A stretch of 64,000 nucleotides of DNA from an uncultured Pseudomonadales bacterium (GTDB lineage Bacteria > Patescibacteriota > Microgenomatia > UBA1400 > PJMF01): NCBI GenBank assembly GCA_964620965.1, contig CAZUHV010000001.1:85839-149838 (forward strand), read 5' to 3'. The first letter of the stretch is position 1. The number at the start of each line of letters is the position of its first letter. Below the pieces are notes generated by a model. That model was not told the origin of the DNA. It saw only the letters and a list, made by a program, of their open reading frames with translations, and did not search any database. The position numbers and the translations under genes are program-made. This document shows positions 34,152 to 64,000 of the stretch, piece by piece.

Positions 34152-34225
34152 GGCCCCATCGTCTAGCGGTTAGGACACCAGGTTCTCATCCTGGTAACCA
34201 GAGTTCGATTCTCTGTGGGGTCACC
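34152..34225 (+). tRNA. tRNA-Glu (anticodon CUC)
   Basis: Acceptor GGCCCCA/TGGGGTC. D arm TCGTCTAGCGGTTAGGACA. Anticodon stem CCAGG/CCTGG with loop TTCTCAT. T arm AGAGTTCGATTCTCT. Discriminator A then CC encoded. Confidence 0.8.
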
Positions 34226-35743
34226 TAAAGCAACACCCTGTGTATTAAAGTTAAATAATGATTGATACATAGGGTTTATTTCAGGGTTCAATGTTCCATT
34301 AAAGTCATATGTGACACCTTTGGGAAAGATTGAACCAAATAAAGCTTTTATCTGAGGTACGGTCGATTTTTTGTACGTAGCTCCTAAATCACTCAAAGTT
34401 TCTTTTATAAAAGCTGTTAGCTTGTTGATATCATATTTTTCAAGCGTTGAGTCTGCTTTGGCAACATGAGCTTTCTGTAGTTTATTCTCTATTAATGCGT
34501 TTTGTTCCATGAATATTTCATCGGTATACACACCCATCATGTTTTTTTGCACCAACACTTTTCTCATATCTTTGAGTCTTTGAATTTCATCATCTGCTAC
34601 GTTTTTGGCTTTCTTTACATTGGCAAGCCTCCTTTCATATTCTTCAACTACATACTGTGTAAATAACTCAATACATTCTTTACTTGGTGAAATGGATCTC
34701 AACAATCGAACCACTTCTTCATCTAACTGTTCAGCTCTAATAGAAGCGGCCTGACATTTAGTAGAACATCGGTAGTATGGATACTTTTTACTTCTACCTT
34801 TACTCCAACCAGCAGTTATTCCTTTGCCACACTCAGAACACTTAACAATCCTTCTTAACGGAAATGTTTTATTATTTCTAACTCGTTTTGTATTTACTAC
34901 AGGTTTAAAAACTCTTCTACCATCTAAAGCATCCTGAACTTTATAGAACTGTTCTAATGAAATCATTGGCCTGTGTTGACCTTGGACTTCTTCTTTATAA
35001 GTATCTGACGTCAAAATTCCTGCATAAAATTTATTACGAAGCATTCGTTGAACGGTAGGCACCTTTAATTTTATTCTTTTGCCTTTATGAACAGTGTATA
35101 AGCCCAGCTCGTTCATGATTTTCGTTATTTCAATGAGGCTTTTGTTTCCAAGCGCCATCAAATCCCACGCCTGCACCATCTTGTCCCATGATTCTGGGTC
35201 TTCGATTGGAAATTTGTTAACATCCATCATGTACCCAAGTGGAGGTTTTCTTGTGATTAATCCAGACTTGAACCTTGCATACATGCCATTTCTTGTTCTC
35301 TCGCTGCGTACATCATTATCATGCTGAGCAAAACTGGCCATGATAGTTTCTAGCAGTGTATCTGTTGGAGACGTTCCTGTGGGTTCTGAGGCTGAAATTA
35401 GCTGTATATTATTGCTGATCAAGGTCTTTCTGATTGAAAGATAATCTGAAGTTTGTCGAGAAAGTCGATCTAGTCTGTAGATAATAACAGCACCAAGCGT
35501 TCTTTTATTTTTCTTGCAATAATGCAGTAACTCGACTAATTCTGGACGACCAGCTATAGTTTTGGCAGACTTACCTTCCTCACGAAATATTTTGATAACT
35601 TTCAAGCCTTTTCTAATAGCTTCTTTTCGACACAGTTCTTCTTGAGTATCTAATGAAAAATTATCAACTTGCTCTTCGGTTGAAACTCTGAGGTAAATAA
35701 TTGCATCAGTTTTAGTAGTATTTTGAGCTTTATTTCTAGTCAT
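34163..35743 (-). CDS. large serine recombinase (resolvase catalytic domain, recombinase domain and zinc ribbon)
   Basis: IIYLRVSTEEQ catalytic Ser motif. Recombinase domain. Zinc ribbon CSECG...YYRCSTKC. C-terminal coiled coil. The last about 21 codons are encoded antisense to the 3' two-thirds of tRNA-Glu. Confidence 0.8.
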   Translation of the reverse strand: MTRNKAQNTTKTDAIIYLRVSTEEQVDNFSLDTQEELCRKEAIRKGLKVIKIFREEGKSAKTIAGRPELVELLHYCKKNKRTLGAVIIYRLDRLSRQTSDYLSIRKTLISNNIQLISASEPTGTSPTDTLLETIMASFAQHDNDVRSERTRNGMYARFKSGLITRKPPLGYMMDVNKFPIEDPESWDKMVQAWDLMALGNKSLIEITKIMNELGLYTVHKGKRIKLKVPTVQRMLRNKFYAGILTSDTYKEEVQGQHRPMISLEQFYKVQDALDGRRVFKPVVNTKRVRNNKTFPLRRIVKCSECGKGITAGWSKGRSKKYPYYRCSTKCQAASIRAEQLDEEVVRLLRSISPSKECIELFTQYVVEEYERRLANVKKAKNVADDEIQRLKDMRKVLVQKNMMGVYTDEIFMEQNALIENKLQKAHVAKADSTLEKYDINKLTAFIKETLSDLGATYKKSTVPQIKALFGSIFPKGVTYDFNGTLNPEINPMYQSLFNFNTQGVALGDPTENRTLVTRMRTWCPNR

Positions 35744-35939
35744 AATTCAGCTGGTTTAGTAATTCATCTAACGTTTTTCCTTCAAACATTTCTTTTTCAA
35801 AGTCGTCTAACCAACTAGTTGCCAAAAATTTAATTTCAACAACTGAATCTTGCAAAATTTCTTGAGGAATTGGTGAGTTTTCACCAGTGTAGGTATTGGG
35901 GTTATTGTCTAATTCGTGGCTATTTTTCATCTCGATCAA
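35736..35939 (-). CDS. hypothetical small acidic protein (candidate recombination directionality factor)
   Basis: 67 aa, pI acidic. Its stop overlaps the recombinase start by 8 nt. The functional assignment is speculative. Confidence 0.3.
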   Translation of the reverse strand: MIEMKNSHELDNNPNTYTGENSPIPQEILQDSVVEIKFLATSWLDDFEKEMFEGKTLDELLNQLNYD

Positions 35940-35948
35940 CCCTTATTT

Positions 35949-35991
35949 AACTATCCATATACGGTTAGTATATATACTATTACGGATAGTT
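35949..35991. promoter_or_regulatory. nested palindrome (candidate operator or recombinase-binding site) upstream of the T4CP gene
   Basis: Outer inverted repeat AACTATCC/GGATAGTT encloses a perfect 14-bp palindrome TAGTATATATACTA. A TTGCCA-17-TATACT promoter follows at 36009..36037. Confidence 0.4.
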
Positions 35992-36071
35992 GTCAACACT
36001 AATTTATTGCCAAAAACCAGAGGTTGGGGTATACTCCAACACAACATTGTCTGCCCAAAGAAAAGAAGGGC

Positions 36072-38660
36072 ATGGCTACTGATTTAAACCAAATACTCTC
36101 ATACTTTCCTGCCACAGTAATTCCATCAATCAACTGGTCTGTTCTTTATTTTTCCCTCAGCATTTTTTTCATTTTTCTTGTTTCACTCTTCTTAGCTTTT
36201 CAGCTCATTCGGCTTGCCTTGTTATATAGACTTCACACTGCAAAACATGTCTATTTAGAAATTAAGCCACTCAAAAAGACAGAGCTTAATCCATATTCTA
36301 CCGAGCAACTCTTTAATCTCTTTCATAGCATTACCAATCAAAGGTCTTTTATTGAGAGAATATTTAGAGTTACAAAAAGTATTAGCCTGGAGATTGTCTC
36401 CACCAAGGCCGATGGTATTCGCTATGTGATTCGAGCACCTCAGTCTTTATCAGGACTTATCAAAAATAGCTTGCTGTCATATCTGCCAGGAATTCAGATC
36501 AACAAAACCGCTGAGTATCTACAGAAAAGTGAAAATAGTTTTACCACACAACTAAAACTTGCCAAACACTTTGCTTTCCCTCTAAAGGCTCATGAAAGTT
36601 TAGATAAAAATGACCCTATCGCGTACTTAACTGGGGCTATGACTAAACTCAAGGAAAACGAGTTACTTGCCTATCAAATTGTTATCAGCCCTGTTTCAAA
36701 ATCAAAACTTCCTGAAGTTAAACGACTCCAAAAACTCATCAAGAGTAAACAAGACTTAACTGCCGAAATTGCCCATGCACATTCAGGTGCTTGGTTGTAT
36801 CTGACAATTTCTTACGCACTACAAATCTTACTTTTACCACTTGGTTTATTAGTGTTCCTAGCTACCGATGGTAGAGATGGGCCATTATTACCACTGCCTA
36901 AAATTCTAAAAGGCAAGAAATCAAGTAATGCCTACCAGAGTGAAATTGAAAAGCTAGTTAAAAAGAAAATTGATCAGCCTTTATACAAGGCTTCAATCAG
37001 AGTGCTTTCTCAATCAACAAATGAATATTGGGCTAAGAAAAAATCAAAAGGTTTTGTTTCAACGCTCAAGTCAATGAGTGGTACTCAATATCAACATCTT
37101 ACTAAAAGTCTTAAACTTCCAATCAAGCAACTTAACACTTTCAAGAACTTATTGTTTAGAAATCGGCTATTACTCCCTTTTAACAACACAATACTGTCTG
37201 CATCCGAACTTGGAGATTTATATCACTTCCCATTCACCAAGACGACAAAAACTGAAGATATGCAAAAGCAGTTTAGCAAGGATTTACCTGCACCGCTGTC
37301 ACTCAAAAAAGGTAATAAGCTTGATGTAGTATTTGCCCAAAATACGTATGGTAATTCCAGAACATTGATCGGCTTAACCGAGGATGAACGCAGAAGACAC
37401 ATGTACATCTTGGGAGCTACAGGTACGGGCAAATCAACCATGCTACTGAGCATGATCAACTCCGATATTCAAAACGGCAAAGGATTGGCAGTTGTTGATC
37501 CTCATGGAGATTTGATTGAACAAATTTTACATCTAATACCAAAAGAGCGGATCAAAGATGTTGTGTACTTTAACCCTGATGATATTGAGTATCCGATGGG
37601 AATCAACTTACTTGAGTTATCACAAGGCTTAGGTGAAGAAGCTGCATTAAGAGAAAAAGAATACATCTCTGAAAGCATTATTTCTTTGTTCCATAAAATC
37701 TATACCGAAAAATACTCGGGCCCAAGGATGGAGTATATCCTCAGAAACACCATTCATACTGCCTTTACTGTTCCTGGAGCAACATTATTTACTGTCTATA
37801 AATTACTAATCAATACTAAGTTTAGAAAATCAGTGGTTAAACAACTAACCGATGAAAACCTCAAAGACTTTTGGAAGTATGAGTTTGCCAAAGCTGGAGA
37901 CTACCAGAAAGTAAAAATGATCTCACCAATTACTAACAAAATTGGTCGTTTCCTGTTTTCTCCAACAGCTAAAAGAATCTTGGAGCAAGAAAAATCTACC
38001 ATAAACTTTGAAGAAATAATGAATGAAGGCAAGATCTTGCTTTGTAACTTATCCAAAGGAAAGCTTGGAGAAGATAACTCAAAAGTGTTTGGCGTGGTGG
38101 TTATGGCAAAACTACAGCTTGCTTCTCTAAGGCGTGCTCGAATGGCTGAGAAAGATAGAAAAGACTTCTACTTATATGTTGATGAATTCCAAAACTTTGC
38201 CACTCCCGCTTTTGCACAAATATTGTCTGAGGCTAGAAAGTATAGACTAGGGGCAATACTAGCCCATCAAACAACTTCACAGTTGGAAGACAAGTCATTA
38301 GTTAATGTGACACTGGCTAACACTGGAACAGTAATTTGCTTTAGAACTGCTAACCCAGAAGATGAGACACTCATCTTGCCTCAATTCAGGCCATATGTTG
38401 AACAAGGTGATATTGCTGGATTACCGTCATACAGATTCTTTATGAGACTAGGTGCTTTAAACCCTGAAGAGCCTTTTTCTGGGATTACTATGCCTGTTGA
38501 AATTAGGGAAAACAAAGGAAGAGTGAATGAGGTGATTGAGAATTCTAGAAAGCACTTTGCCATGAAATACGAGCCGTCAGCAACAACACAAGTTTTTCGT
38601 AGATATAAAAAGGTAAGTAAACCCAAATCTAAAACACAGGCATTTTCGACCTTGCCTTAG
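36072..38660 (+). CDS. type IV coupling protein-like ATPase (TraD/TrwB/VirD4 or TraG-D_C family, membrane-anchored)
   Basis: N-terminal TM helices. Walker A YILGATGTGKST. VVDPHGDL. Walker B YLYVDEFQNF. The ORF track starts at 36024, which lies inside the predicted promoter, so the ATG at 36072 (MATDLNQ) is preferred. Confidence 0.55.
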   Translation: MATDLNQILSYFPATVIPSINWSVLYFSLSIFFIFLVSLFLAFQLIRLALLYRLHTAKHVYLEIKPLKKTELNPYSTEQLFNLFHSITNQRSFIERIFRVTKSISLEIVSTKADGIRYVIRAPQSLSGLIKNSLLSYLPGIQINKTAEYLQKSENSFTTQLKLAKHFAFPLKAHESLDKNDPIAYLTGAMTKLKENELLAYQIVISPVSKSKLPEVKRLQKLIKSKQDLTAEIAHAHSGAWLYLTISYALQILLLPLGLLVFLATDGRDGPLLPLPKILKGKKSSNAYQSEIEKLVKKKIDQPLYKASIRVLSQSTNEYWAKKKSKGFVSTLKSMSGTQYQHLTKSLKLPIKQLNTFKNLLFRNRLLLPFNNTILSASELGDLYHFPFTKTTKTEDMQKQFSKDLPAPLSLKKGNKLDVVFAQNTYGNSRTLIGLTEDERRRHMYILGATGTGKSTMLLSMINSDIQNGKGLAVVDPHGDLIEQILHLIPKERIKDVVYFNPDDIEYPMGINLLELSQGLGEEAALREKEYISESIISLFHKIYTEKYSGPRMEYILRNTIHTAFTVPGATLFTVYKLLINTKFRKSVVKQLTDENLKDFWKYEFAKAGDYQKVKMISPITNKIGRFLFSPTAKRILEQEKSTINFEEIMNEGKILLCNLSKGKLGEDNSKVFGVVVMAKLQLASLRRARMAEKDRKDFYLYVDEFQNFATPAFAQILSEARKYRLGAILAHQTTSQLEDKSLVNVTLANTGTVICFRTANPEDETLILPQFRPYVEQGDIAGLPSYRFFMRLGALNPEEPFSGITMPVEIRENKGRVNEVIENSRKHFAMKYEPSATTQVFRRYKKVSKPKSKTQAFSTLP

Positions 38661-39322
38661 TTGCTTTTAACAATTTTTCCATCTTTGATTATTGGAAAGA
38701 AATTGAATGTATCAACCTCTAGTGCCAAGTGAAAGTCATCCTCGGGAAAATTATCATTTTGAGGATTAAGAAAGCTATTCAATATCCATTCATGTTGTTC
38801 AAGCTTTGCTTTCACTTCCTCGAGAGAAGGATGTGTCTCACCTTTTAATTTACTTACCATGTACTCAGCAAAAAGTTGATCTTCTAAAGCATACATTGGG
38901 ACGAATGTAATATCTTCAGATTGACTGGCTTTTAAGAAATCCAAAATTGCTTGAGCAGAAACGAATGACCCAAATATTATTTGATTTGCATTTGTAGAAT
39001 TAACTAAGCCTTGTGTGCCAGTTGAACTTCTATGAATAACCTTTTTTCCATCCAAATTATTAAGGGTTTTTATAACTGATGGAGAATTACCGATATCAAA
39101 ACCATCAATCTTAATTCCCTTATTTTCACCAACAAGCAACACTTCTTCATCCTTCATCTTAAAGTCAAAAGCCTCTTCTGGGGTTGCAACAGGATGAATT
39201 GAAGTCACACCTTTATCAAGTAAATATGATGCAACAGTTGCTGCCCTCAGAACGTCAATTATTATCGCAATACCATTAGCACTTTGCGCCCCTTTAATTC
39301 CTTTGACAATTTTAATATTCAT
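38657..39322 (-). CDS. 2-phosphosulfolactate phosphatase (ComB) family protein
   Basis: IIDVLRAATVASY and GIKIDGFDIGNSP motifs typical of PF04029. Confidence 0.55.
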   Translation of the reverse strand: MNIKIVKGIKGAQSANGIAIIIDVLRAATVASYLLDKGVTSIHPVATPEEAFDFKMKDEEVLLVGENKGIKIDGFDIGNSPSVIKTLNNLDGKKVIHRSSTGTQGLVNSTNANQIIFGSFVSAQAILDFLKASQSEDITFVPMYALEDQLFAEYMVSKLKGETHPSLEEVKAKLEQHEWILNSFLNPQNDNFPEDDFHLALEVDTFNFFPIIKDGKIVKSN

Positions 39323-39348
39323 ATTTTTCCCTTAAGCATATAAGTTCA

Positions 39349-40083
39349 TTATGCTTTACTCATACTATTTATTGTTCGTGCAATACTTAGCCAATCACTT
39401 TTTTTTAATCCATACGCTACTGGGTGTGGGATTACAAAGAAATGAGTAGTACCTTTTCTGCAATGATATAGATTTTTATTTTTCCTAAACTTCTCAGAAA
39501 CAATATCACTCCATTTATCTAAATATGATAAAGAATAAAAAATTACTACCTTTGGATTATGTTTTTTTAGTAACTTTTTAAATAAATCAATTCTTATTGG
39601 CATTACATGCTCTAAATATGTTTTTCTTGTTTCTAAATAATCAATCTTAAATTGGTCATAAAACCAATCTTTTTTTCTGACTGACTTACAAGGAAGTGGC
39701 ATGAACTCTAAAACACAGTGATCACTATGTGATCTAGCAAAGTTATTTCGTTGATATTGTTTTATTACATCTAGACTAACTTCTTCACTTGAATACAACA
39801 TAAGTAATATGAGAATAAGTTTTGACCAGGTTCTCTGACTTGGAGCATCTGGTAAAAACCATTTAATGTGATCAGGGACATGCTTCATATCAGATTTGAT
39901 ATCTATGACAGATTTATCTTTGGTCTTAGTAAACCTTTTTTCTAAATCTGATAGGCTGCCATCAAAACCTTCCTCCATACCAACAAACCAAGTATCAGAG
40001 TCAAGATTCCCATACCCCCAGTAGTTTTTTATTCTATTTTCGATTAATTCTTTATTTAACATACCTAATGCTTGATTATACAT
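39349..40083 (-). CDS. hypothetical protein (possible UDG-superfamily-like fold; weak)
   Basis: 244 aa. N-terminal GMEEGFDG and C-terminal VIPHPVAYG are spaced like UDG motifs A and B. This is inference only. Confidence 0.3.
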   Translation of the reverse strand: MYNQALGMLNKELIENRIKNYWGYGNLDSDTWFVGMEEGFDGSLSDLEKRFTKTKDKSVIDIKSDMKHVPDHIKWFLPDAPSQRTWSKLILILLMLYSSEEVSLDVIKQYQRNNFARSHSDHCVLEFMPLPCKSVRKKDWFYDQFKIDYLETRKTYLEHVMPIRIDLFKKLLKKHNPKVVIFYSLSYLDKWSDIVSEKFRKNKNLYHCRKGTTHFFVIPHPVAYGLKKSDWLSIARTINSMSKA

Positions 40084-40262
40084 TGATTTAAACTTAAGAT
40101 TACTCTATTAAAAAACTGCCCCTACCGTCTAGGACAAAAATAAGATACTTTCCCAGATACGAATCAAAATATTCTTTACCTCTATTCCCTTATATAATAA
40201 GGGGAGGGAATGATACAATACCTCACAATACAGAAAATAGCCTGCCCATAGTAAATAACACT

Positions 40263-41030
40263 ATGGATACCATAACTCCTAAACAATTAGAAATCCTCAT
40301 ACTAATATATCGTTTCCGTTTCCTTAATCGTCACCAAATCCAAATACTCCTTAATCATAAAGACCCCAAACGAATAAACTCCTGGCTTAAAGATCTCAAT
40401 CAAAAAAATATCCTCGGTAGAATCTACTCAACTAAACTCAAAGAAAATACCAAACCAGCGATATACTACCTAGCTACCAAATCAAGAAAAATACTTCTTG
40501 AACAAGAAAATACTAACGAGAAAATTTTAAGAAGAGCCTACAGGGACAAAAATGCTTCTCAAAAATTAATAAATCACAGCATCTTTCTAGCCAATGTCTA
40601 TTTATTACTTAAAGAACAAGCCCTCAAAAACAAACAAGAACTTCATTTTTATACAAAAACTGATTTAGCAGAACACTACTACCTGCCATATAACCGACCA
40701 GATGTGTATATTTCCCTGAAAGGGAATGACTTAACAAAGCGTTATTTCCTAGAAATCATTGACAAAGGTACACCACGCTTTATGCTTCGAAAGAAAATCT
40801 CTCAATACATTGAGTACTTTGACGAAGGAACCTGGCAAAATAGGACGTTACATGAAAAACCATCACTTTTATTTATCTCTCCAAATCAAAATATCTACAA
40901 CTTCCTCACCAAACATATTGCTCAAGTTTTGGAGGAGGAGACTTCAGACTTACAATTTTTCCTAAGTCTGAAGTCAGAGATACAAGAAGCTGGCTTAACT
41001 GCCAACACTTGGCACCTCATCAGCGAGTAA
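40263..41030 (+). CDS. replication-relaxation family protein (PF13814-like, putative relaxase or mobilisation protein)
   Basis: N-terminal ITPKQLEILILIYRFRFLNRHQIQ winged-helix signature of the Replic_Relax family. Confidence 0.55.
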   Translation: MDTITPKQLEILILIYRFRFLNRHQIQILLNHKDPKRINSWLKDLNQKNILGRIYSTKLKENTKPAIYYLATKSRKILLEQENTNEKILRRAYRDKNASQKLINHSIFLANVYLLLKEQALKNKQELHFYTKTDLAEHYYLPYNRPDVYISLKGNDLTKRYFLEIIDKGTPRFMLRKKISQYIEYFDEGTWQNRTLHEKPSLLFISPNQNIYNFLTKHIAQVLEEETSDLQFFLSLKSEIQEAGLTANTWHLISE

Positions 41031-41780
41031 TACCGCCAGCACTTTTTCAACTGTTCCCATCGCCTTAGTTATGGCAATGAGTGGATCATCTGAATAGTGG
41101 CTAATATAGCTCCAAGCTTTCCCGCTAGAATCTCCCATGCCGTACAAGTCCATCAATACTGCAGATGTAAACTCGGCTACTGTTTCTTGTGTCTTGTTTT
41201 GTCCTTGCTTTAGCTCTCCATCTATTCGCGCGTGTATCGCATGGGCTAATTCATGAAAAAATACTCCTGCATCGTGTGTACCAAGTCTGATTTTGCTACC
41301 ATCAGTTTGACAATCACCAAGCTTATCAGGACTAATAGGTGCATACTCAACATCTATACCAAATTTTTTAGCCACATCTAGCAACGGAGGATATTCTACT
41401 GGCTCGTAGGTTGATACCATTTCATCACCCTCAGTGCATGAAGCTGCAAATACTGGAATAGGAGCAAACCCAACACAAATATTTTTTGTATCCTCTTCGT
41501 TTTCCTGATCAACCTTTGCGAGCTTGGGTCTGAGTATATACACTGCTTTACTACCTTTTTTGACCGTTCTGCCTTCTTTTTGCCACTGTTTATACCCTCG
41601 GCAATCAAGCTCATCTGACTGTAAAAAGGCTAGCACTTTATTTGATAAACTCCACTTATTAACTGGAGCATCACTAGCAACTTGAATGCGAGCTATTCTT
41701 GTCACAGTTGATAAGTCTCCAGTTTGAAATTTTTCTATTACTTTGTTGATGCTTGCCTGTGCTTTTGCTGATAGTTTCAT
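40995..41780 (-). CDS. ArdC-like antirestriction protein (ssDNA-binding ArdC-N plus zincin metalloprotease-like domain)
   Basis: KWSLSNKVL...RGYKQWQKEGRTVKKGSKAVYI matches the ArdC-N pattern. C-terminal HExxH (FHELAHAIH). Confidence 0.55.
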   Translation of the reverse strand: MKLSAKAQASINKVIEKFQTGDLSTVTRIARIQVASDAPVNKWSLSNKVLAFLQSDELDCRGYKQWQKEGRTVKKGSKAVYILRPKLAKVDQENEEDTKNICVGFAPIPVFAASCTEGDEMVSTYEPVEYPPLLDVAKKFGIDVEYAPISPDKLGDCQTDGSKIRLGTHDAGVFFHELAHAIHARIDGELKQGQNKTQETVAEFTSAVLMDLYGMGDSSGKAWSYISHYSDDPLIAITKAMGTVEKVLAVLLADEVPSVGS

Positions 41781-41952: not shown

Positions 41953-42495
41953 ATGAAACAAAACACTAAACTTCCAAAAAACTATCCAACAAGTATCACT
42001 GAAGCATATGACTTAATTGTCAAAGCATTGCTTTCTGAAGATAAAGAACTAATAGCTAAAACCTGGAAATTCATTAATGAGGCAGAAGGTGATTGGGTTT
42101 GGGTAAGAGCAAAATTAATTACCGATTGTTATGAAGCTGCAGATGCAAAAGGAAGGGAAGAGTTTTGCTTGCTTGCATTAAGTGAGCATGTTAAAAATGG
42201 TCGAGCTTTGCCTCTAGCTGAGTTATTTACTGATCCCGATACAAACATTGATTATCTCGAATATCTAATGGGAGATATGACAATTTATCGACTGCCAATT
42301 GCAACTCCTGAGATAGGTAAATATGAATATCAAAAGGCATTAGAAAAAAAGTTTCTTGGAGATTTTATCGAAACACATTCTGTAGATGAAGTTACATACA
42401 CTCCACTAGATACTCAAGAGAAAATTGATGCATACAATAGCGGTGAGTATTATGAAAAGTTTGTGTATGGTAAAAGAAGAAAAAAGAAAAAATGA
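41953..42495 (+). CDS. hypothetical protein
   Basis: 180 aa with a Lys-rich C-terminus. TATAAT lies only 6 nt upstream of the ATG, suggesting a possible leaderless mRNA. Confidence 0.35.
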   Translation: MKQNTKLPKNYPTSITEAYDLIVKALLSEDKELIAKTWKFINEAEGDWVWVRAKLITDCYEAADAKGREEFCLLALSEHVKNGRALPLAELFTDPDTNIDYLEYLMGDMTIYRLPIATPEIGKYEYQKALEKKFLGDFIETHSVDEVTYTPLDTQEKIDAYNSGEYYEKFVYGKRRKKKK

Positions 42496-42535
42496 CGAAT
42501 TGCTCTGAGAAACTCTCAAAGCAATTAGGTATTAA
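42496..42535. repeat. 40-bp palindromic repeat, copy 1 (direct repeat of 48161..48200, 39/40 identical)
   Basis: CGAATTGCTCTGAGAAACTCTCAAAGCAATTAGGTATTAA. Contains a 13-bp-stem hairpin AATTGCTCTGAGA-aac-TCTCAAAGCAATT. Confidence 0.8.
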
Positions 42536-42592
42536 CTTTTACAGTCTAAAAATGTTTTTCTGCTGAAAGGTGAGTATTTTATAATTGAAGAA

Positions 42593-43090
42593 CTATTCTT
42601 CATTTAAAATCATTTCCATTAAGTACTGATCATAAAAACGATCGTCAATCTTAACTGCCATCTTTAGCTCACCTACTTTTTCAAAACCCACTGATTCATA
42701 TAAATTTAATGCTGAAATTTGGGTTGCTATAACTCCCAATTGTATTTTTTTTATCTCTGGCTTAGATTTTATCTCTTCAATAACAGTCAACAATAGTTTT
42801 TTCCCAATTCCTTTTCCTCTACATTCTGGGCTCACATAAACACGTACTATGTTTGCAATATGTGCCAATTTTTTCTTTTCCTCACAATAAAAACCAGCCA
42901 TACCGACAAGTTTTTCATCATCAGTAATTGCAAAAAACATATTTTTTATCCTGTCTTGCCACTCAGAATCTTCTTTTGAACTTATTTCTTCTTTGCTCCA
43001 CAAAAATGCTTGTGGTGAATTAGCAATGGACTCCATATAGAGATTTTTATAATCGAGCCATCTTGAAATTGGTAATTTAGTAATTTTCAT
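42593..43090 (-). CDS. GNAT family N-acetyltransferase
   Basis: Acetyl-CoA binding motif RGKGIGKKLL. Confidence 0.7.
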   Translation of the reverse strand: MKITKLPISRWLDYKNLYMESIANSPQAFLWSKEEISSKEDSEWQDRIKNMFFAITDDEKLVGMAGFYCEEKKKLAHIANIVRVYVSPECRGKGIGKKLLLTVIEEIKSKPEIKKIQLGVIATQISALNLYESVGFEKVGELKMAVKIDDRFYDQYLMEMILNEE

Positions 43091-43153
43091 TATTATTCAA
43101 ATTCTAACTGATTTTTACATTATTTCGCCACCATAAACAAGCTAAAAAATTAA

Positions 43154-44518
43154 CTATTTACTTCTGTAATATTCAAACATATCTTGATTCCAATCAGCGC
43201 TTATCAATGCCTCCCAGGCTGATTCTGCTTGACCAGGATGTTTAGTCTTCCAATCTGCTAACCAAGTTTGAATAATATATCTTTCATCCCTCTCAAGCAT
43301 TGCAGAAATTATTCTTCGTGCTAATAATTCTCTTGGTATCAATACACCTTGCAAGAGTAAGTTTGAAAATTCAATTTCTTCTAAACGACTTAAACCATTT
43401 GAATCAACCTTAACTGGAACTTCAACAAAAGTTTCATCATCAAGTCCTTTAATTGCACCTTTATTTGGAATACTCAATTGTAATTCTGCACCTGTATTAT
43501 TTTCCCTCGCATCAATATATGGGATAATATCCCACTCTGATCTATGCAACCCAAATGTTCTTGTAGCAGATTGAGAGGGACTAAAATTATTTACATTTTT
43601 AACAATGTTTGTTAACCACGAGAGATTCATATTATGTCCAATATCACCATCGAAACCTTGAGTAGGACCAAACCATTTCTCTTTAGTCTGAGGACTATCA
43701 GCATACCACCAAAATTCTGGCATAACACCTCTAACAGTATCTCCAACTGGAAAAAGACCATACCGCTTGTACATATCTAATGCTACCTTACTAATTTGAT
43801 AGTCCGCATGATGTGATACTGGGGTGTAAAATTTATAAAATGATTCTGCAGCAGTATTAATCCAATCGTCTAACATTGGATAAGCATTTTCTCCTTTATA
43901 AGTGAAATTTTTTAACCATATATTATGATTTATTCCAGCTACTTGTGAACTCACCAATCCAAAATCAGAAATACCTAATAAACCATATAACTTTTTTAAT
44001 TCATGATGTCCATGACAAATACCAATGGTATCAACTCCTGTAGCTTGATGAATAAGTCCACAGCCCTCTGGAACTGGATTTGCTGCCATAATCAATGTAG
44101 CATCTGGGCATCTATCTGCCATCGTTTCACCAACATCCATCATTAACTTAAGTTGTCTAAATGGTGTATTGATTCCTATACCTCTATAATATCCATGTTC
44201 TTCAAGTAAAGCTCTGTCTTGATCCATTGCATCTCTTCCACCAGCCAAAGCCGCTAAAATAACATAATCAACTGCTCCTCTCAACGGTTTTTCCCAAGAA
44301 GTTTCTGTTTGGAAAGTATAACCTGCATTCATTTCATCGTTATAAGATTGTGCAACTCTTGCAATAGCATTCAAACGTTCTTCATCTTTGTCCACTAAAA
44401 TAATGTTTGAATTATGTAACCCTGGTGTAATTATTAAATCTCTAATAATATCCAAAGAAAAAGTAGCACTTCCTGCGCCTATAACCTCAATATTGTTTCT
44501 TTTCATTTTTGTTCCCAA
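43154..44518 (-). CDS. glycoside hydrolase family 4 (NAD/Mn-dependent alpha-glucosidase / 6-phospho-glucosidase-like)
   Basis: N-terminal Rossmann IEVIGAGSATFS. Conserved CHGH region (IGICHGHHE). Size 454 aa. Confidence 0.6.
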   Translation of the reverse strand: MGTKMKRNNIEVIGAGSATFSLDIIRDLIITPGLHNSNIILVDKDEERLNAIARVAQSYNDEMNAGYTFQTETSWEKPLRGAVDYVILAALAGGRDAMDQDRALLEEHGYYRGIGINTPFRQLKLMMDVGETMADRCPDATLIMAANPVPEGCGLIHQATGVDTIGICHGHHELKKLYGLLGISDFGLVSSQVAGINHNIWLKNFTYKGENAYPMLDDWINTAAESFYKFYTPVSHHADYQISKVALDMYKRYGLFPVGDTVRGVMPEFWWYADSPQTKEKWFGPTQGFDGDIGHNMNLSWLTNIVKNVNNFSPSQSATRTFGLHRSEWDIIPYIDARENNTGAELQLSIPNKGAIKGLDDETFVEVPVKVDSNGLSRLEEIEFSNLLLQGVLIPRELLARRIISAMLERDERYIIQTWLADWKTKHPGQAESAWEALISADWNQDMFEYYRSK

Positions 44519-44598
44519 TCAAATTGATTTGCGGATAATTATATCATAAGGTACAATTATATATCTAAATATATCATTAGAAGTTTTGAAAGCTAACA

Positions 44599-45495
44599 AT
44601 GCCAAATAAAAGTAAAGAACACCATATAGACCACAGACACTATGATAACCTGTTAACAGAGGGAAGAAGAATGTTATGGCATGACCCAATATGGAGACAA
44701 GGACCAGAAAGGGCATATTCTGTTACTTCAGAAGCAATTGATATTTTCTTAGAGTATTCTGACTCCTTAGAGGTACCTTATATGGAAATTGGTTCTGGAC
44801 CTTATTCTCCTTTGGGAGTGTCAACAGTTATGTATCTAAATGGCGTTGAAAGTACAATTGCATTAGACATAACACAAGCGGATCTCCAAAGATCAGCCGA
44901 AGCTTTATATGATTTGTTGGCAGCTTGTGCACTTGAACCAGATAAGTGGAATATGTCTGGAAAACCAAATGAAGAATTCTTACAAAGAATAAGACAATTT
45001 AACATTCCTGCATTAAAAAAAGGTGATTTACTCACCGGAGTTTCTAGTACAAATTTAAGTTATGTTTTAGGTAGCTTAGAAAATATGCCTTTAACTAATG
45101 AGCAAGTTTCTCTAGTTTCCTCAAGAGCAACTCTGGAACATATTTTAAATTTCAAACAAGGCATGCAAGAATTATTTAGAGTTATGCAACACGGTGGTGT
45201 AGCATTCCATTCCATTGATTTAGTTGACCATCGAGTTTACAGAGAACCTGAAAAATATAATATGTGGTCATTCCTCACTGAGGAGAAAAATCCTATTAAC
45301 AAATGGTGCAACCGTCTTAGAGCGGACGAAATCTTGAAAATTGCAGAGAATGTAGGATTTGAAACACATGTTATTAAAACAGGAAAAAATGAGATTCCTC
45401 CTGAAGTGCTAAACAACCTACACCCACATTATGCAAAGATGGATTTAGAGGATCTTAAGACTACTAATCTTGTATGTGTGTTTTACAAGAAATAG
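44599..45495 (+). CDS. class I SAM-dependent methyltransferase-like protein
   Basis: EIGSGPYSPLG glycine-rich motif. Weak call. Confidence 0.4.
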   Translation: MPNKSKEHHIDHRHYDNLLTEGRRMLWHDPIWRQGPERAYSVTSEAIDIFLEYSDSLEVPYMEIGSGPYSPLGVSTVMYLNGVESTIALDITQADLQRSAEALYDLLAACALEPDKWNMSGKPNEEFLQRIRQFNIPALKKGDLLTGVSSTNLSYVLGSLENMPLTNEQVSLVSSRATLEHILNFKQGMQELFRVMQHGGVAFHSIDLVDHRVYREPEKYNMWSFLTEEKNPINKWCNRLRADEILKIAENVGFETHVIKTGKNEIPPEVLNNLHPHYAKMDLEDLKTTNLVCVFYKK

Positions 45496-45502
45496 TACAT
45501 CT

Positions 45503-46675
45503 ATGAATCCAAACGAATCGTTAATTTTAAGGCCAGCAATAAACAGAGAAATCACTAAAAGTAGAAAGTGGCTTGATGTCCCGAACCCTGATGTCTTGGG
45601 CATGGGTTTAGCAGATATGGATTTTCAAACAGCTCCTCCTGTGATTGAAGCAATTAAATTACGGGTTGAACATGGTATTTTTGGATATGACCAATTACCA
45701 GATTTTCTTTTTGAAACAATTATCAAAAGATTAGAATTATTACACAACTGGAAGGTTAAGCCAGAATGGATTCTTCTAACACCTGGAATTATTCCTAGCT
45801 TATATGCTACAAACAGAGCAATCGGAAGCTCTCATGATGATGTGATCACACTAGTACCTACTTACGGAGAAATAATGAATTCTGCTCTCAGAGCAAATCA
45901 AAATTTAATACAGGTTGAAATGAATTTTGATGGTAAAAACTGGGCAATAGATTTTGACAAGTTTGAAGAATCTATAACACCCAAGACGAAAGTTTTAAAT
46001 TTTTGCAACCCACATAATCCAATAGGTCATGTGTACAATGTCCAAGAACTAACTAAAATAGCAGAAATATGTAAAAGACATAACATAGTTATTTCTTCTG
46101 ACGAAGTCTATGCAGATTTAATATTAGATGAAAATAAAAGACATATTCCGATAGCTTCGATCGATGATCAAATAGCACAAAATACTATCACTCATTTATC
46201 AGCAAGTAAAACTTTTAATTTATCTGGATTAAGATTTTCATATACAATTATTCCCAATGAAGGTTTACGAGAAAAGTTTATTCAAAATACTTCAAGAATT
46301 TTACCTGGTGTTAACTTTTTAGGTGCAATAGCAACATTGGCAGCATATCAATATGGTGAAGAATGGAGAGGTGAACTGATAAATTATTTAAGAATCAATA
46401 GAGATTTAATCTATCAGTACTTTGATCCTATCCCCAATGTATCAGTTTCAAAAATTGAAGGAACATTTTTAGCATGGATAGACATAAGATCCTTAGGACT
46501 AAATAATCCCACTGATTTTTTCGCTACTCATGCTAAAGTACAGTTGCTTGATGGAAATGATTTTTCAGCACCAGGATTCATTAGGCTTAATTTTGGGTGT
46601 GAAACTAGCAAACTAGAACAAGCACTTATCAAAATTAAACAAGCAATTCTTACACATCAAGAGCGAATTCATTAA
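45503..46675 (+). CDS. PLP-dependent aminotransferase class I/II, MalY/PatB-type C-S lyase
   Basis: PLP-lysine motif LSASKTFNLSGLRFSY. The ORF track starts at 45470 and overlaps the methyltransferase gene, so the internal Met (MNPNES) is preferred. Confidence 0.7.
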   Translation: MNPNESLILRPAINREITKSRKWLDVPNPDVLGMGLADMDFQTAPPVIEAIKLRVEHGIFGYDQLPDFLFETIIKRLELLHNWKVKPEWILLTPGIIPSLYATNRAIGSSHDDVITLVPTYGEIMNSALRANQNLIQVEMNFDGKNWAIDFDKFEESITPKTKVLNFCNPHNPIGHVYNVQELTKIAEICKRHNIVISSDEVYADLILDENKRHIPIASIDDQIAQNTITHLSASKTFNLSGLRFSYTIIPNEGLREKFIQNTSRILPGVNFLGAIATLAAYQYGEEWRGELINYLRINRDLIYQYFDPIPNVSVSKIEGTFLAWIDIRSLGLNNPTDFFATHAKVQLLDGNDFSAPGFIRLNFGCETSKLEQALIKIKQAILTHQERIH

Positions 46676-47072
46676 TATAATTTTTTAGAAAATCTAGAAA
46701 TGGATTTGTATAATCAATTTCTGCCAATAATGTTTTTACATTTTCTTGAGAAAAAAATTTCAGCTGTTTCCCTTCACCAAGCTTAATTTTATCTTTCTGA
46801 GTATCAACTCTAGCTTGAAAAATTAGTGCATCCCAGTCTTCATTAAAAGCTAATGAACCAACCCTTACCACATCTGAAGCAACAAGTGATGTCTCCTCAA
46901 AAACTTCTCTTTCTGCGGCATTTTCTGGTAGTTCACCTGGTTCAATACCACCACCTACTAAACTCCATTGGTTAGTCATTAATGGAGTATTTCCATCTCT
47001 AAGATGCAAAAGAAATTCACCATTTTGATTGATAATTATTATACCTACTCCAACTTTTTTATTTTTTTTCAT
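46650..47072 (-). CDS. NUDIX hydrolase
   Basis: Nudix box GGGIEPGELPENAAEREVFEETSL. Confidence 0.75.
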   Translation of the reverse strand: MKKNKKVGVGIIIINQNGEFLLHLRDGNTPLMTNQWSLVGGGIEPGELPENAAEREVFEETSLVASDVVRVGSLAFNEDWDALIFQARVDTQKDKIKLGEGKQLKFFSQENVKTLLAEIDYTNPFLDFLKNYINEFALDV

Positions 47073-47119
47073 TCTGAATAATTATAACAAAATTTGACCT
47101 ATTATTTTTTTCTAAAAAA

Positions 47120-48064
47120 TTATTTACCACTTTTTTGAGATTGGATTGTCAATTTTATGCCTTCATTTATATCAACTTTAGGTGACCAACCCAATCTTTG
47201 ACCTGCCTTTTTGTTGTCTAAAACATTTCTTCTGACATCACCGGGCCTATCTGGACCAAAAATTGCTGGTTGTCCAGAGTTTAAAGCATTCTTAACAGCT
47301 TCAAATACCTCAAGATTTGATACCTCAACTCCAGAAGATATATTGAAGTAATCTGATTCTTTATGAATCATACTAAGCATTATTGCATCAACAAGATCAT
47401 GTACATAGAGATAATCTCTTGTATGTTTTCCGTCACCATTAATTATAGGAATTTCACCATTAAGCATTTTATTAATAAATATTGCTATAATACCTGCTTC
47501 TCCCTGAGAGTCTTGTCTAGGCCCATAAATATTTGCCAAACGTAAAGAAACCCAAATCATATTATATAAATTTCCAAAAAGCCTCATATAATATTCCCCT
47601 GATAATTTTGAAATATTATAAAAAGATGCTGGTTTTAAAATTTTTACATCTTCATCCGTAGGCAGCATTTCATCAGGTTGTTCACCATATAATGCACCTC
47701 CAGTGTTTGTATATATTATTCTTTCACCACCATTCTTCCTTGCTGCATCTAAAACATTAAACATCCCACGAACATTTACCTCCAAATCAAAACGAGGATC
47801 TTTCATTGAAGCTGGAACTTGATTTTGAGCCGCAGTGTGAACAACTACTTCAGGTTTAACTTTATCAAAAACTTTCTCTAAACTTTCCTCATCGCAAATA
47901 TCAACTTGATAAAACTTTGTACTATCATTTAAATTTTCGATTTTACCACTAACCAAATTATCAACAACAGTAACATTATAGCCCTCAGCTATACATCTAT
48001 CTTGAACATGAGATCCAATAAATCCAGCACCACCTGTTACTAAAATTTCCCGTCCTTTTTTCAT
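47120..48064 (-). CDS. NAD-dependent epimerase/dehydratase (UDP-glucose 4-epimerase-like)
   Basis: ILVTGGAGFIGSHV. Catalytic YxxxK (YNISKLSGE). The ORF track extends to 48184, but that extension overlaps the 40-bp repeat, so the start at MKKGREIL is preferred. Confidence 0.7.
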   Translation of the reverse strand: MKKGREILVTGGAGFIGSHVQDRCIAEGYNVTVVDNLVSGKIENLNDSTKFYQVDICDEESLEKVFDKVKPEVVVHTAAQNQVPASMKDPRFDLEVNVRGMFNVLDAARKNGGERIIYTNTGGALYGEQPDEMLPTDEDVKILKPASFYNISKLSGEYYMRLFGNLYNMIWVSLRLANIYGPRQDSQGEAGIIAIFINKMLNGEIPIINGDGKHTRDYLYVHDLVDAIMLSMIHKESDYFNISSGVEVSNLEVFEAVKNALNSGQPAIFGPDRPGDVRRNVLDNKKAGQRLGWSPKVDINEGIKLTIQSQKSGK

Positions 48065-48160
48065 TTTGACCCCTTTATTATTAAAATGATATAAATTGTT
48101 ATAGAAAGCAATTGTAATCGAGTTATATAAGATAATCAAGACTAATACAATAAAAAATTT

Positions 48161-48200
48161 CGAATTGCTCTGAGAAACTCTCAAAGCAATTAAGTATTAA
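48161..48200. repeat. 40-bp palindromic repeat, copy 2
   Basis: CGAATTGCTCTGAGAAACTCTCAAAGCAATTAAGTATTAA. On the minus strand the hairpin is followed by a T-run, so it may act as the terminator of 48190..48495. Confidence 0.8.
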
Positions 48201-48495
48201 AAATCAAATAATCATACAGAAACATAACTGCCCACAAACAAAAGATTGAGATAATCAAATAAGCAAGCTTTCTATTCCAACCCCGCTTCAACTGTGCCAA
48301 CGAGCCCAACAGAATTACTATCTCAAATGGATAAGTAATAAAATCACAGTAACTTCCACACCAATTCTTTTCTAAAATAACTACATCTGTTGCAAAGCTA
48401 TTTAAACCAAAACTTTGCTGCACATCTCTAACAATATGAAACACTGAGAAAAGTACTAACAAACCAAAAACATATTTGTATGCATTCTTTCTCAT
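48190..48495 (-). CDS. hypothetical small membrane protein
   Basis: Three TM helices. ATGA overlap with the upstream nuclease gene. Confidence 0.35.
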   Translation of the reverse strand: MRKNAYKYVFGLLVLFSVFHIVRDVQQSFGLNSFATDVVILEKNWCGSYCDFITYPFEIVILLGSLAQLKRGWNRKLAYLIISIFCLWAVMFLYDYLIFNT

Positions 48496-57965: not shown

Positions 57966-58079
57966 CTGATACAATTTACAACCAAAAGTAAAGCGTTATA
58001 ACAAGAGCTGCCCACTAGTGAGGTAGCTTTTTTTGTAACACCTGCCCAACAAACTTTAATTAGTGAAAGGGTCGTGTTT

Positions 58080-58412
58080 ATGAAAAAACTCATAGTTCTC
58101 CAAAGCATATTACTTACTTCCTTAGTCGTGGCGAGTCCAGCATTTGCTCAGTCCGCAGAAGTAGGACAAATTCAATCATTTATCCAAGAAGTGATTCAGA
58201 TCATGGTCACTTTGTCTGGCTTTATCGCAGCAGGCTTTATTGTCTGGGGCGGAGTTGGTTACATTACTAGCTCTGGAAATCCAGAAGCTTTAGAAAAATC
58301 TAAAAAGACTATTCTGTATTCTGCAGTCGGGCTGACCTTAGTACTCGGTGCGTTTGTTATCTCAAACATGGTGAGCCAGGTAGCAACTACTGCATTTGGA
58401 TCTGGAATGTAA
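58080..58412 (+). CDS. VirB2/TrbC-like pilin
   Basis: Signal peptide ending AFAQS, then two hydrophobic helices separated by SSGNPEALEKSKKT. The ORF track starts at GTG 58074. The ATG at 58080 has an AAAGGG RBS. Confidence 0.5.
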   Translation: MKKLIVLQSILLTSLVVASPAFAQSAEVGQIQSFIQEVIQIMVTLSGFIAAGFIVWGGVGYITSSGNPEALEKSKKTILYSAVGLTLVLGAFVISNMVSQVATTAFGSGM

Positions 58413-58437
58413 TTGATTAGAAAAGGAATACGTATTG

Positions 58438-63934: not shown

Positions 63935-64000
63935 TTCCAGCATTAGTAATTACTTAAAGTATTTTTTTATGCTTTAGTTCTTACTAAAGGTTTTTTTGCC

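Follow-up and report, generated by a model that had tools for sequence, protein, structure and literature searches.

Large serine integrases are known from phages and from integrative and conjugative elements (ICEs), including A118 (LI), phiC31, Bxb1, TP901-1 and SPbeta; CcrB/CcrC and XisF also belong here. They combine three domains with catalytic Ser and Arg residues and a four-Cys zinc ribbon. Nearly all of them target protein-coding genes, and the use of tRNA genes is uncommon and barely documented (PMC7192596; open-access text). In the case of the LI integrase of A118, the attP and attB arms carry the same distal motif, and a 5-bp ZD shift is the published rule relating the two sites (PMC3783163). 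Islander-type tRNA islands (3′-end sublocation class) are generated by tyrosine integrases; the integrase gene adjoins a tRNA that stays intact, a displaced piece of the tRNA, tens of nucleotides long, is present, and tandem accretion may occur at the same tRNA.

Two groups of conjugation systems are relevant to the gene content described below: (i) the Firmicutes/Mollicutes ICEs and IMEs with a FATA T4SS, VirD4 and MobC (streptococcal IME class 8; CD1110/CD1115 of C. difficile), in which PF13814, equated with MobC, is paired with VirD4 (PMC5357655), and (ii) the T4SSs of Patescibacteria, which comprise VirB4, VirB2-like pilins, VirB6, a VirB3/PrgI-like protein and a T4CP, and are mostly devoid of a relaxase, relaxases being found in few genomes (PMC12102498). 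The latter study left integrases and tRNA junctions out of consideration.

The 64,000-nt stretch analyzed here (the window) probably contains the left end (attL) of an ICE of approx. 33.5 kb, inserted by a large serine integrase at the very 3′-end of tRNA-Glu(CTC) in a Patescibacteria genome, probably that of a Candidatus Dojkabacteria member. The original prediction of a conjugative element joined to tRNA-Glu through a large serine recombinase is upheld by domain content and related loci, and its remark that serine recombinases are uncommon at such sites agrees with PMC7192596. The integrase (526 aa; 34163–35743, minus strand) matches the Pfam models Resolvase (1.7e-33), Recombinase (1.8e-11) and Zn_ribbon_recom (7.1e-11), and contains the invariant residues R19/S21, D92/R93 and the four zinc-ribbon Cys, as in the characterized enzymes. 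None of the NCBIfam models reaches its cut-off with this protein. More than 1000 homologues were found, but no annotated phage or plasmid enzyme reaches 30% identity with the integrase.

The tRNA-Glu(CTC) gene (34152–34225, plus strand; ARAGORN) is the host gene and forms the B arm of attL. As originally predicted, ARAGORN and the ORF coordinates place the last 63 nt of the integrase ORF (34163–34225), including its stop codon (34163–34165, minus strand), antisense within this tRNA. In 62 of the 71 evaluable related loci, mostly from Patescibacteria MAGs, the last conserved integrase codon adjoins a tRNA in antisense orientation, and the overlap is therefore a family trait, far beyond chance. 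The tRNAs involved represent 14 amino-acid identities and 25 anticodons, and in all but one of 65 ARAGORN calls the tRNA 3′-end stops 1–4 nt before that codon does (offset −1 to −4 nt). Six MAGs carry two family copies each, at different tRNAs; this speaks for mobility, as do the complete relative L060 and the differing cargo of L087 (see below).

The conserved part of the integrase ends at G507, the codon of which overlaps the tRNA discriminator/CC, and its final 19 codons, with the stop codon, run antisense to the tRNA. The ORF is the outermost gene of the element and lacks its own stop codon, so that it continues across attL into the host tRNA DNA, up to the first antisense stop; hence the 63-nt overlap. 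This distinguishes it from the known large serine integrases, while the position of the gene beside an intact tRNA resembles the Islander-type islands, from which the locus differs in having a serine instead of a tyrosine recombinase. The tails of recombinases at least 90% identical diverge directly after GDP, and the differences include the CTC versus TTC anticodon and compensatory T-stem changes; the tRNA body is host DNA, varying independently of near-identical recombinases.

The core module of the family (integrase, small ORF, T4CP and Replic_Relax) is kept in 54–58 of 86 loci. The small acidic ORF (67 aa; 35736–35939, minus strand) overlaps the integrase start by 8 nt, the coupling noticed originally. 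It is retained beside the integrase in 57 related loci and has no Pfam or NCBIfam matches; it may be considered a candidate directionality or regulatory factor. A consensus scan revealed a divergent pair of promoter-like pattern matches (35967–36035), one oriented toward the small ORF and the integrase (TTGACA-18-TATACT, minus strand) and the other toward the T4CP (TTGCCA-17-TATACT, plus strand).

The VirD4-like coupling protein (36024–38660, plus strand) contains the TrwB_AAD_bind, TraG-D_C and T4SS-DNA_transf domains (Pfam), gives a TraD/CD1115-like NCBIfam match below the cut-off, and has homologues adjoining the integrase in 58 loci. It is followed by genes for a 2-phosphosulpholactate-phosphatase-like protein (Pfam) and a 244-aa hypothetical protein (38657–40083, minus strand), missing from the other family loci and classified as cargo or an insert. 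A putative MobC-type relaxase of the Replic_Relax family (PF13814, 1.8e-13; 40263–41030, plus strand) has homologues in 54 loci, and the ArdC-like protein (40995–41780, minus strand; HELAH metalloprotease-type motif read from the translation) matches ArdcN (2e-5) over 39 residues, a partial N-domain match, with homologues in four loci (L023, L043, L044 and L087). The Pfam searches thus agree with the identities proposed originally for the serine recombinase and these three proteins, although the ArdcN match is short; the Replic_Relax, T4CP and ArdC assignments are at the domain level only. No oriT was identified.

Further to the right lies probable cargo, comprising a 180-aa hypothetical gene, a sugar-modification cassette and a small membrane ORF (41953–48495); the cassette (5.6 kb; GNAT, GH4, methyltransferase, aminotransferase, NUDIX and epimerase) is flanked by a 52-nt direct repeat. 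Defence genes, likewise probable cargo, follow (48492–57816, minus strand), encoding a DUF2779/Cas4-like nuclease, an AAA_13 ATPase (PADLOC candidate PDC-S06) and the type I restriction-modification proteins (hsdR, hsdS, hsdM). The mating-pair-formation genes (58074–63253, plus strand; Pfam, NCBIfam) specify a VirB2-like pilin, a VirB6-like protein with a pilin domain, a PrgI/VirB3-like protein, VirB4 split into ORFs of 206 and 604 aa, and an M23 peptidase.

The VirB4 score (NCBIfam conju_CD1110, 370 bits versus a cut-off of 325), the pairing of a PF13814 relaxase candidate with VirD4, and the PrgI-like protein and cell-wall hydrolase are shared with the Firmicutes/Mollicutes elements. The locus differs from these in its Patescibacteria host, strongly diverged proteins, split VirB4, pilin-domain proteins and tRNA-specific serine integrase. 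Its T4SS set is that reported for Patescibacteria but, unlike in the published account (PMC12102498), it very probably sits between att sites, in one element together with a Replic_Relax protein and an integrase.

It may be asked whether the island still moves. It could be a fixed remnant with an inactive or domesticated integrase and a T4SS serving an epibiotic lifestyle rather than conjugation, a co-option argued for in PMC12102498. Tandem relics and mini-inserts at the tRNAs of the family indicate that decay happens. Searches recovered five empty tRNA-Glu sites, all aligning on the GTGACCC core described below, but none (no attB) in the same host, and no excised circle was found for the window's element. 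However, the integrase ORF is undamaged and retains every catalytic and zinc-binding residue, recombinases at least 90% identical occupy different tRNA-Glu genes (both CTC and TTC), cargo varies between close relatives, and in 12 of 83 loci the assembly is interrupted at the junction. We therefore consider loss of mobility unlikely.

The extent of the element was analyzed with two further sequences. The region at the window end (63386–64000, plus strand) is continued by a Logan contig (L001) that matches 11,359 nt of the window without a difference; it adds hypothetical genes as well as an HTH_XRE and a PLD-like gene, and ends within a far arm (P arm), 6 nt short of the core. The same arm is seen whole in a related element, L180, which shares 94.6% identity with the extended window in the PLD region, 96.7% in the HTH gene and 88.4% in the T4SS genes. 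Since synteny with L180 places the right end approx. 3.7 kb beyond the window, the element, with its T4SS, would measure about 33.5 kb; the attR core (GGGTCAC, preceded by GGTTCAAACTGAGTTACCTTA) is predicted approx. 3.72 kb past the window end (approx. 67.72 kb). The rightward extension foreseen originally is thus supported, and the T4SS genes at 58–63 kb very probably belong to the element.

A much shorter mobile unit of approx. 8 kb (integrase, T4CP, Replic_Relax and ArdC; 34.2–42.5 kb), with cargo, restriction system and T4SS as separate islands or chromosome and a chromosomal T4SS borrowed in trans, would be in keeping with a complete 6.5-kb relative that has a 17-nt direct repeat (L060), with host-like arg genes approx. 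8 kb from the integrase in L086, and with the view of Patescibacteria T4SSs as chromosomal (PMC12102498); an attR defined by a 7-nt core alone could also be overlooked. Yet the 33.5 kb rightward of 34218 contain neither GGGTCAC nor a core+N13+T-loop-like arm, and the L180-homologous P arm at the end of L001 encloses the T4SS, HTH and PLD genes in the order seen in L180. Moreover, T4SS genes lie within 10 kb of the integrase in 5–8 of 86 loci; besides the window, seven loci (L019, L026, L027, L039, L067, L071 and L077) show this linkage. The short unit is accordingly improbable. In another relative (L087), only partly syntenic, the cargo differs from that of the window's element.

Returning to the approx. 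33.5-kb element, its attL contains a 7-nt common core, GGGTCAC (GTGACCC on the recombinase strand; 34218–34224), established by aligning the window's attL, the attR of L180, a relic attB (L181) and the attP-type flanks of L086 and L006. This is the sole sequence common to element and target sites in all four junction types, and the crossover presumably occurs inside it, near 34220–34222. The predicted junctions of the window's element are ...GCTTTAGGTGACCCTAAGGTAACTCAG... (attP) and ...TTTTTTACTTGTGACCCCACAGAG... (attB).

The original prediction assumed that the element carries a substantial 3′ portion of the tRNA, i.e. the classic island geometry, with a tRNA segment from T arm to D arm and a crossover within the tRNA body. 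The 63-nt overlap itself, the 17-nt repeat of L060 and the 20-nt piece of a tRNA located at the integrase end of L076 are compatible with this, but similarity between the near-identical elements of the window and L006 stops at 34218, 8 nt from the tRNA 3′-end, the attR of L180 has only the 7-nt core in common with the target side, and the diverging recombinase tails described above differ in the anticodon and in paired T-stem positions. A second copy of the tRNA 3′ 21-mer (up to three mismatches) is absent from the window, as originally stated, and from the 3.7-kb extension, to which the repeat search proposed originally was carried. The classic geometry is thus very improbable, and the original interpretation stands in part, with its att geometry corrected. 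With a 7-nt core only, a search for attR as a repeat of GTTCGATTCTCTGTGGGGTCA would fail even on the whole genome, and the lack of such a repeat would wrongly count against mobility. Tools searching for the displaced fragment typical of Islander-type islands therefore cannot find the far end.

The integrase-facing half-site consists of the tRNA-Glu acceptor 3′ strand, T stem and T loop, in which the core is followed by 8 nt and the T-loop TTCGAAC (B arm). In six far-end or flank sequences the core is followed by 13 nt and a TTCGAAC-like motif; the far arm copies the tRNA acceptor/T-arm with the T-loop motif displaced outward by exactly 5 bp, a rule based on only six to eight arms, that of L006 being weak. 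Strict matches (L060, L062 and L024) all occur at this single spacing, whereas 16 alternative spacings and the opposite strand gave none; further cases with the +5 spacing are L070, L180 and L086. Homologous HTH_XRE or PLD genes are located no more than approx. 100 nt from the P arms. While a 5-bp shift of a shared distal motif is also found in the LI system, the motif here appears to be the universal tRNA T loop and, unlike in known large serine integrases, is present in only one half-site: the integrase-side arm (P′) contains no matching motif, and the downstream half-site (B′) is unconserved, which is unusual among characterized serine integrases.

Many characterized large serine integrases are phage-borne, and the best phage relatives of this one are approx. 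26–28% identical, which would suit a prophage or phage-like element. We nevertheless regard such an origin as highly improbable, since capsid, portal, terminase and tail genes are all absent, only one family member occurs among 2.9 million viral contigs, and the conserved neighbours are conjugation genes.

In the integrative and conjugative element proposed here, the zinc-ribbon domain of the integrase would read the T-loop sequence, and the 5-bp displacement may tell attP from attB, by analogy with the A118/LI model. Because the B′ half-site appears loosely specified, attL could be reused as a target, giving rise to tandem arrays like those of Islander-type islands. Once excised, the element would be transferred by its MobC-type Replic_Relax protein together with the VirD4-like coupling protein and a FATA-like T4SS of its own, with the ArdC-like, type I restriction-modification, AAA_13 and sugar-modification genes as probable cargo. 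The integrase belongs to a large and apparently undescribed family of serine integrases specialized in the ends of tRNA genes, a target that is unusual for this class of enzymes.

The tRNA-Glu(CTC) gene called by ARAGORN occupies positions 34152-34225 on the forward strand, and the longest ORF opposite it (34163-35743, reverse strand) encodes a large serine recombinase of 526 aa with the Pfam domains Resolvase, Recombinase and Zn_ribbon_recom. Comparison of the ORF with the ARAGORN call bore out the original prediction that the recombinase gene ends antisense inside the tRNA: its stop codon lies at 34163-34165, and its final 63 nt are antisense to tRNA positions 12-74. The genes to the left of the tRNA are ordinary ones (TspO, MsrA, MsrB, peptidases). 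At the other end of the recombinase gene, the start is overlapped by 8 nt by a 67-aa ORF (35736-35939), which, by position alone, is a candidate RDF.

All three recombinase profiles proposed for checking matched the ORF: PF00239 (N-terminal catalytic domain, 1.7e-33), PF07508 (1.8e-11) and PF13408 (7.1e-11). Among 36 family members, the residues R19, S21, D92, R93 and R96 are invariant, as are the zinc-ribbon cysteines C302, C305, C326 and C330. The C-terminal domain of the A118 integrase matches the recombinase at 8e-8, and residues ~350-440 are, as judged from sequence, charged and of the right length for the coiled-coil insertion of a zinc-ribbon domain, the feature that controls directionality in large serine recombinases. 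A reading of the locus as the tRNA island of a tyrosine integrase was rejected: we found no tyrosine recombinase (ORFs of at least 100 aa, 34-64 kb) and no displaced tRNA 3′ fragment.

It had also been proposed that the element carries the 3′ part of the tRNA. This is contradicted by (i) the point at which DNA similarity to the related locus L006 ends, (ii) the recombinase tails, and (iii) the junctions of two further loci, L180 and L181. Similarity between the window and L006, whose recombinase is 91-93% identical, stops at window position 34218, after GGTGACCC, with the break at an identical position in loci L086 and L088. The tails of recombinases of the same 90% cluster diverge directly after Gly-Asp-Pro, with differences that include M-R-T versus M-K-T (anticodon CTC versus TTC) and paired changes in the T stem; the tRNA body therefore follows the host and not the element.

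The PLD-like gene of L180 is 97% identical to that of L001 (a Logan contig identical to the window which extends past its end), and the identity between L180 and the extended window is 94.6% in the PLD region, 96.7% in the HTH gene and 88.4% in the T4SS genes. The attR of L180 consists of a terminator hairpin, tttttactt, GTGACCC, taaggtaactcag and TTTGAACC. L181 holds a relic of the uninterrupted target, in which the same flank is followed by GTGACCC-CACGGGGAATTC.

We aligned the attL of the window, the attR of L180, the relic attB of L181, the attP-type junctions of L086 and L006, and five empty tRNA-Glu sites from metagenomes. Only the 7-nt core GTGACCC (GGGTCAC on the forward strand, 34218-34224) was common to these five kinds of sequence. 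The recombinase ORF therefore lacks a stop codon of its own and continues over attL into the host sequence; after the predicted excision, its end would be a different tail of 31 aa. The predicted attP junction is GGTGTTGCTTTAG GTGACCC TAAGGTAACTCAGTTTGAACC, and the predicted attB junction comprises the B′ (downstream host) flank, GTGACCC and CACAGAGAATCGAAC. The crossover is predicted to fall within the 7-nt core; known traits of such integrases are a 2-bp stagger at the crossover and a one-way attP x attB reaction, which an RDF reverses.

The attP-type junctions of L006, L088 and L086 may represent circular forms or tandem arrays. In these three loci P-type arms lie beyond the integrase, where L013 has a second T4CP, and these features fit tandem accretion or circular forms. 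The non-coding stretch which follows the integrase is ~93% identical between L006 (2200-2630) and L088 (2431-2677); their integrase genes are only ~75% alike at the DNA level near the 3′ ends (by eye), and the proteins ~72%. An Rfam search with this conserved flank of L006 gave no match.

After integration the tRNA is no longer followed by a transcription terminator-like site (window 34226-36200), since its former terminator now lies beyond the far end of the element, as in L180. Transcripts reading through the tRNA would therefore be antisense to the integrase gene and could, speculatively, affect its regulation.

The right end of the element was expected at a repeat of the tRNA 3′ end. The check for attR revealed no second copy of the tRNA-Glu 3′ 21-mer in the window or in its 3.7-kb extension on L001, no GGGTCAC to the right of 34218, and no P-type arm between 34.3 and 67.7 kb. 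The flank of L006, tried as a probe for the right end, gave no match. L001 ends at ...AACTCAGTTTGAACC, 6 nt before the core, and the order of features at this end (HTH, small ORF, PLD, P arm) is that of L180 and of another related locus, L024. The attR core is predicted at window-equivalent positions 67,723-67,729, in the forward-strand context ...GGTTCAAACTGAGTTACCTTA GGGTCAC AAGT...; the element would therefore be ~33.5 kb long and contain the T4SS. The synteny of L180 and L001, which places attR at ~67.72 kb, agrees with the proposal of a rightward element including the T4SS genes at 58-63 kb. attL is defined. The attR of the window strain itself was not observed, and its position is predicted from L180 and from the end at which L001 is truncated.

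The comparison with related genomes yielded no empty tRNA-Glu site in the same host: MsrA, TspO, M23 and hyp182 matched only occupied, truncated or identical contigs, and the PNPOx flank led to the relic attB. A metagenome scan with the tRNA 3′ half detected six empty tRNA-Glu sites, all in other organisms. Neither an excised circle nor recombination activity of this element was observed.

By the far arm, L001 encodes a PLD-like protein of 146-151 aa (14558-15013, ~67.2-67.65 kb window-equivalent), whose family gave 4456 matches at E≤1e-20, mostly on short metagenome contigs. It may be a gene that regularly closes these elements; conjugative plasmids are known to encode Nuc-like nucleases.

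The overlap with a tRNA is a trait of the whole recombinase family. More than 1000 homologues were found at E≤1e-10, the best 120 being 52-100% identical and ~505-545 aa long, and the C-terminal tails of many of them resemble antisense tRNA T arms. A scan using one genome per species provided 80 loci, and every one of 83 non-redundant loci was anchored on G507, the last conserved residue. Contig ends lie no more than 80 nt from the anchor in 12 of these (L007, L012, L018, L020, L028, L029, L034, L041, L049, L050, L057 and L083); such breaks at the integrase/tRNA junction are consistent with population heterogeneity or repeats at the sites. In 62 of the other 71, evaluable loci an antisense tRNA has its 3′ end 1-4 nt before the end of the G507 codon, and another three contain tRNA-like sequence without an ARAGORN call. 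The tRNA discriminator is complementary to the base at the anchor. The integrase-adjacent tRNAs represent 14 amino-acid identities and 25 anticodons, and six MAGs each contain two loci at different tRNAs.

The named locus records are mostly Patescibacteria MAGs (including WWE3, Woese-, Levy-, Davies-, Roizman-, Berkel-, Gottesman- and Saccharibacteria), with some labelled as non-Patescibacteria; one member of the same 90% cluster is annotated as Candidatus Dojkabacteria. The family shares less than 30% identity with every annotated recombinase of phages or plasmids, and it is nearly absent from viral contigs (one member among 2.9 million).

The arrangement of the att sites resembles that of the LI/A118 integrase. 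In the tRNA, the core is followed after 8 nt by the T-loop sequence TTCGAAC; at the far ends of relatives, a TTCGAAC-like motif follows the core after 13 nt. Such +13 arms were identified in L060 (two, 134 nt apart), L062, L024, L070, L180 and the flank of L086; in each case a homologous gene of the HTH_XRE or PLD-like kind lies no more than ~100 nt away. In an unbiased scan of 17 spacings on both strands, all strict hits had the +5 spacing and the expected strand, with zero elsewhere; relaxed criteria added background only. The P-arm rule, derived from few arms, is putative.

In the attP half-sites of the LI/A118 system, the motif bound by the zinc-ribbon domain (ZD) spans positions 16-24; in attB it sits 5 bp closer to the centre (PMC3783163). 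A crossover at the AC of GTGACCC would put the motif at positions 17-24 of the P (far-end) arm and at 12-19 of the tRNA. The 5-bp shift matches this attP/attB trait for the P and B (tRNA-side) arms only. The P′ (integrase-side) and B′ arms showed no clear motif, which is a weakness of the model and may also explain the reuse of attL. The zinc-ribbon domain would read the T loop, and bases of the acceptor and T stem would provide specificity for individual tRNAs. An inverted copy of the integrase-side arm, considered as the P arm, gave nothing convincing.

A crossover in the D loop was suggested by tandem tRNA 5′ fragments located upstream of the tRNA in five loci (L061, L063, L022, L071 and L073). 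This reading was rejected, since the copies are not integrase-specific (5 of 61 integrase-adjacent tRNAs versus 2 of 61 other tRNAs) and the boundary maps to the tRNA 3′ end. Each unit (L063 2238-2620; L061 11543-11690; L073, L022 and L071; and at the tRNA-Arg of L077, 16124-16200) joins a promoter-like stretch to the initial 16-23 nt of the tRNA, as far as the D loop, and is repeated once or twice directly before the intact tRNA. The units measure 62 nt (L061) and 169 nt (L063), and resemble small inserts that bring a tRNA 5′ end of their own.

Mini-inserts of another kind (~110-140 nt), delimited by a repeated 20-nt piece of the tRNA 3′ end with the break in the T loop, were observed in L076 (11485-11690), between the integrase end and a full tRNA-Arg, and in L181 (976-1130), between the original tRNA-Glu flank and the far arm of the ICE. 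They may be left over from another integration system or may hitchhike on one.

The genes next to the recombinase encode a conjugation module. Pfam searches identified a T4CP-like ATPase (36024-38660; PF10412/PF12696), a Replic_Relax protein (40263-41030; PF13814, 51.5 bits against a gathering cut-off of 25.3) and an ArdC-like protein with a partial N-domain (40995-41780). The first two assignments of the original prediction were thereby confirmed. ArdC proteins combine an N-terminal ssDNA-binding domain with a C-terminal HExxH metalloprotease domain; the third protein is a candidate with a short ArdcN match (residues 60-98, 2e-5), HELAH in the translation and no NCBIfam match. Further to the right are T4SS genes (pilin, VirB6-like, PrgI, split VirB4, M23 peptidase), among which VirB4 of the CD1110 family scores above the NCBIfam cut-off. 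PF13814 is treated as belonging to the MobC relaxase superfamily, reported to be paired with VirD4 coupling proteins (PMC5357655). At the domain level, the element would thus possess its own putative relaxase, a coupling protein and a T4SS with VirB4, as an ICE requires.

In tblastn searches with the window proteins against the related loci, the small ORF had a homologue in 57 loci, the T4CP in 58 and Replic_Relax in 54, and these genes adjoin the recombinase in unchanged order across loci. T4SS genes lie on the element side within 10 kb in 5-8 loci, and in L067, L071 and L077 the full module and T4SS set fits into 9.4 kb. Some loci contain the integrase and Replic_Relax only and look like mobilizable elements. 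The window VirB4 is split into a 206-aa N-terminal ORF (60214-60834) and a 604-aa ATPase ORF (60827-62641) overlapping by 8 nt; this is not a frameshift error, because the split is kept in L180 and other relatives.

The same region also encodes sugar-modification genes, a DUF2779/Cas4-like nuclease, an AAA_13 ATPase and a type I restriction system. The ATPase (best PADLOC match, candidate PDC-S06) and the nuclease adjoin the type I restriction-modification operon (48492-57816), an arrangement which recalls partners of the PrrC/RloC type. A 5.6-kb cassette (GNAT, GH4, methyltransferase, aminotransferase, NUDIX, epimerase) is enclosed by a 52-nt direct repeat (92% identical; 42484-42535 and 48149-48200, with a partial inverted copy at 45886-45906) that contains a hairpin, AATTGCTCTGAGA-AAC-TCTCAAAGCAATT; the repeat may mark a separately acquired module or be a repeated terminator-like element. 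The tRNA-Glu element of L087 (1-5300), in a partly syntenic genome, combines the same module with copper-resistance cargo (P-type ATPase, multicopper oxidase, ArsR-type regulator), and in L180 a helicase takes the place of small hypothetical genes of the window. A mobile element is expected to vary in this way.

According to the only large survey to address the question, serine integrases had not been reported to use t(m)RNA genes; it described 14 candidate cases among 297, in need of proof (PMC7192596). In the open-access literature on Patescibacteria ICEs, serine recombinases at tRNAs and Replic_Relax, we found no description of this recombinase family. The individual parts, namely the large serine integrase and the ICE equipped with FATA-like T4SS, VirD4 and MobC, are of known kinds. 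The apparent novelty lies in their combination with systematic targeting of tRNA ends, a tRNA-mimicking attP arm, an integrase ORF reading through the junction, and a Patescibacteria host range. We consider the balance to be slightly in favour of a serine-integrase family of more than 1000 homologues specialized on tRNA 3′ ends (the T loop serving as zinc-ribbon motif, and attP as a tRNA mimic plus 5 bp), whose members, as genuine ICEs and IMEs, carry the Patescibacteria-type T4SS together with VirD4 and a diverged MobC relaxase.

With a shared sequence of just 7 nt, these elements will escape tools that use displaced tRNA fragments to delimit tRNA islands. The systematic presence of one family at 14 tRNA identities offers a natural test of why integrases choose tRNAs. 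The rule of the same core with the T-loop motif at +8 or +13 would explain retargeting among tRNAs by one enzyme family, and could help to find or design integrases for conserved sites.

The finding also bears on whether the widespread Patescibacteria T4SS is a conjugation machine. Patescibacteria T4SS have been described with relaxases in only 103 genomes (PMC12102498). In the present case, the T4SS would share an att-bounded element with a coupling protein and a candidate relaxase of the PF13814 type. Between ultra-small bacteria with reduced genomes, these elements would transport genes for defence, metal resistance and sugar modification as cargo. If the reading as tRNA-specialized ICEs and IMEs is true, the supposedly 'relaxase-less, co-opted' T4SS found in the Candidate Phyla Radiation would in large part be conjugative, with tRNA genes as its landing pads.
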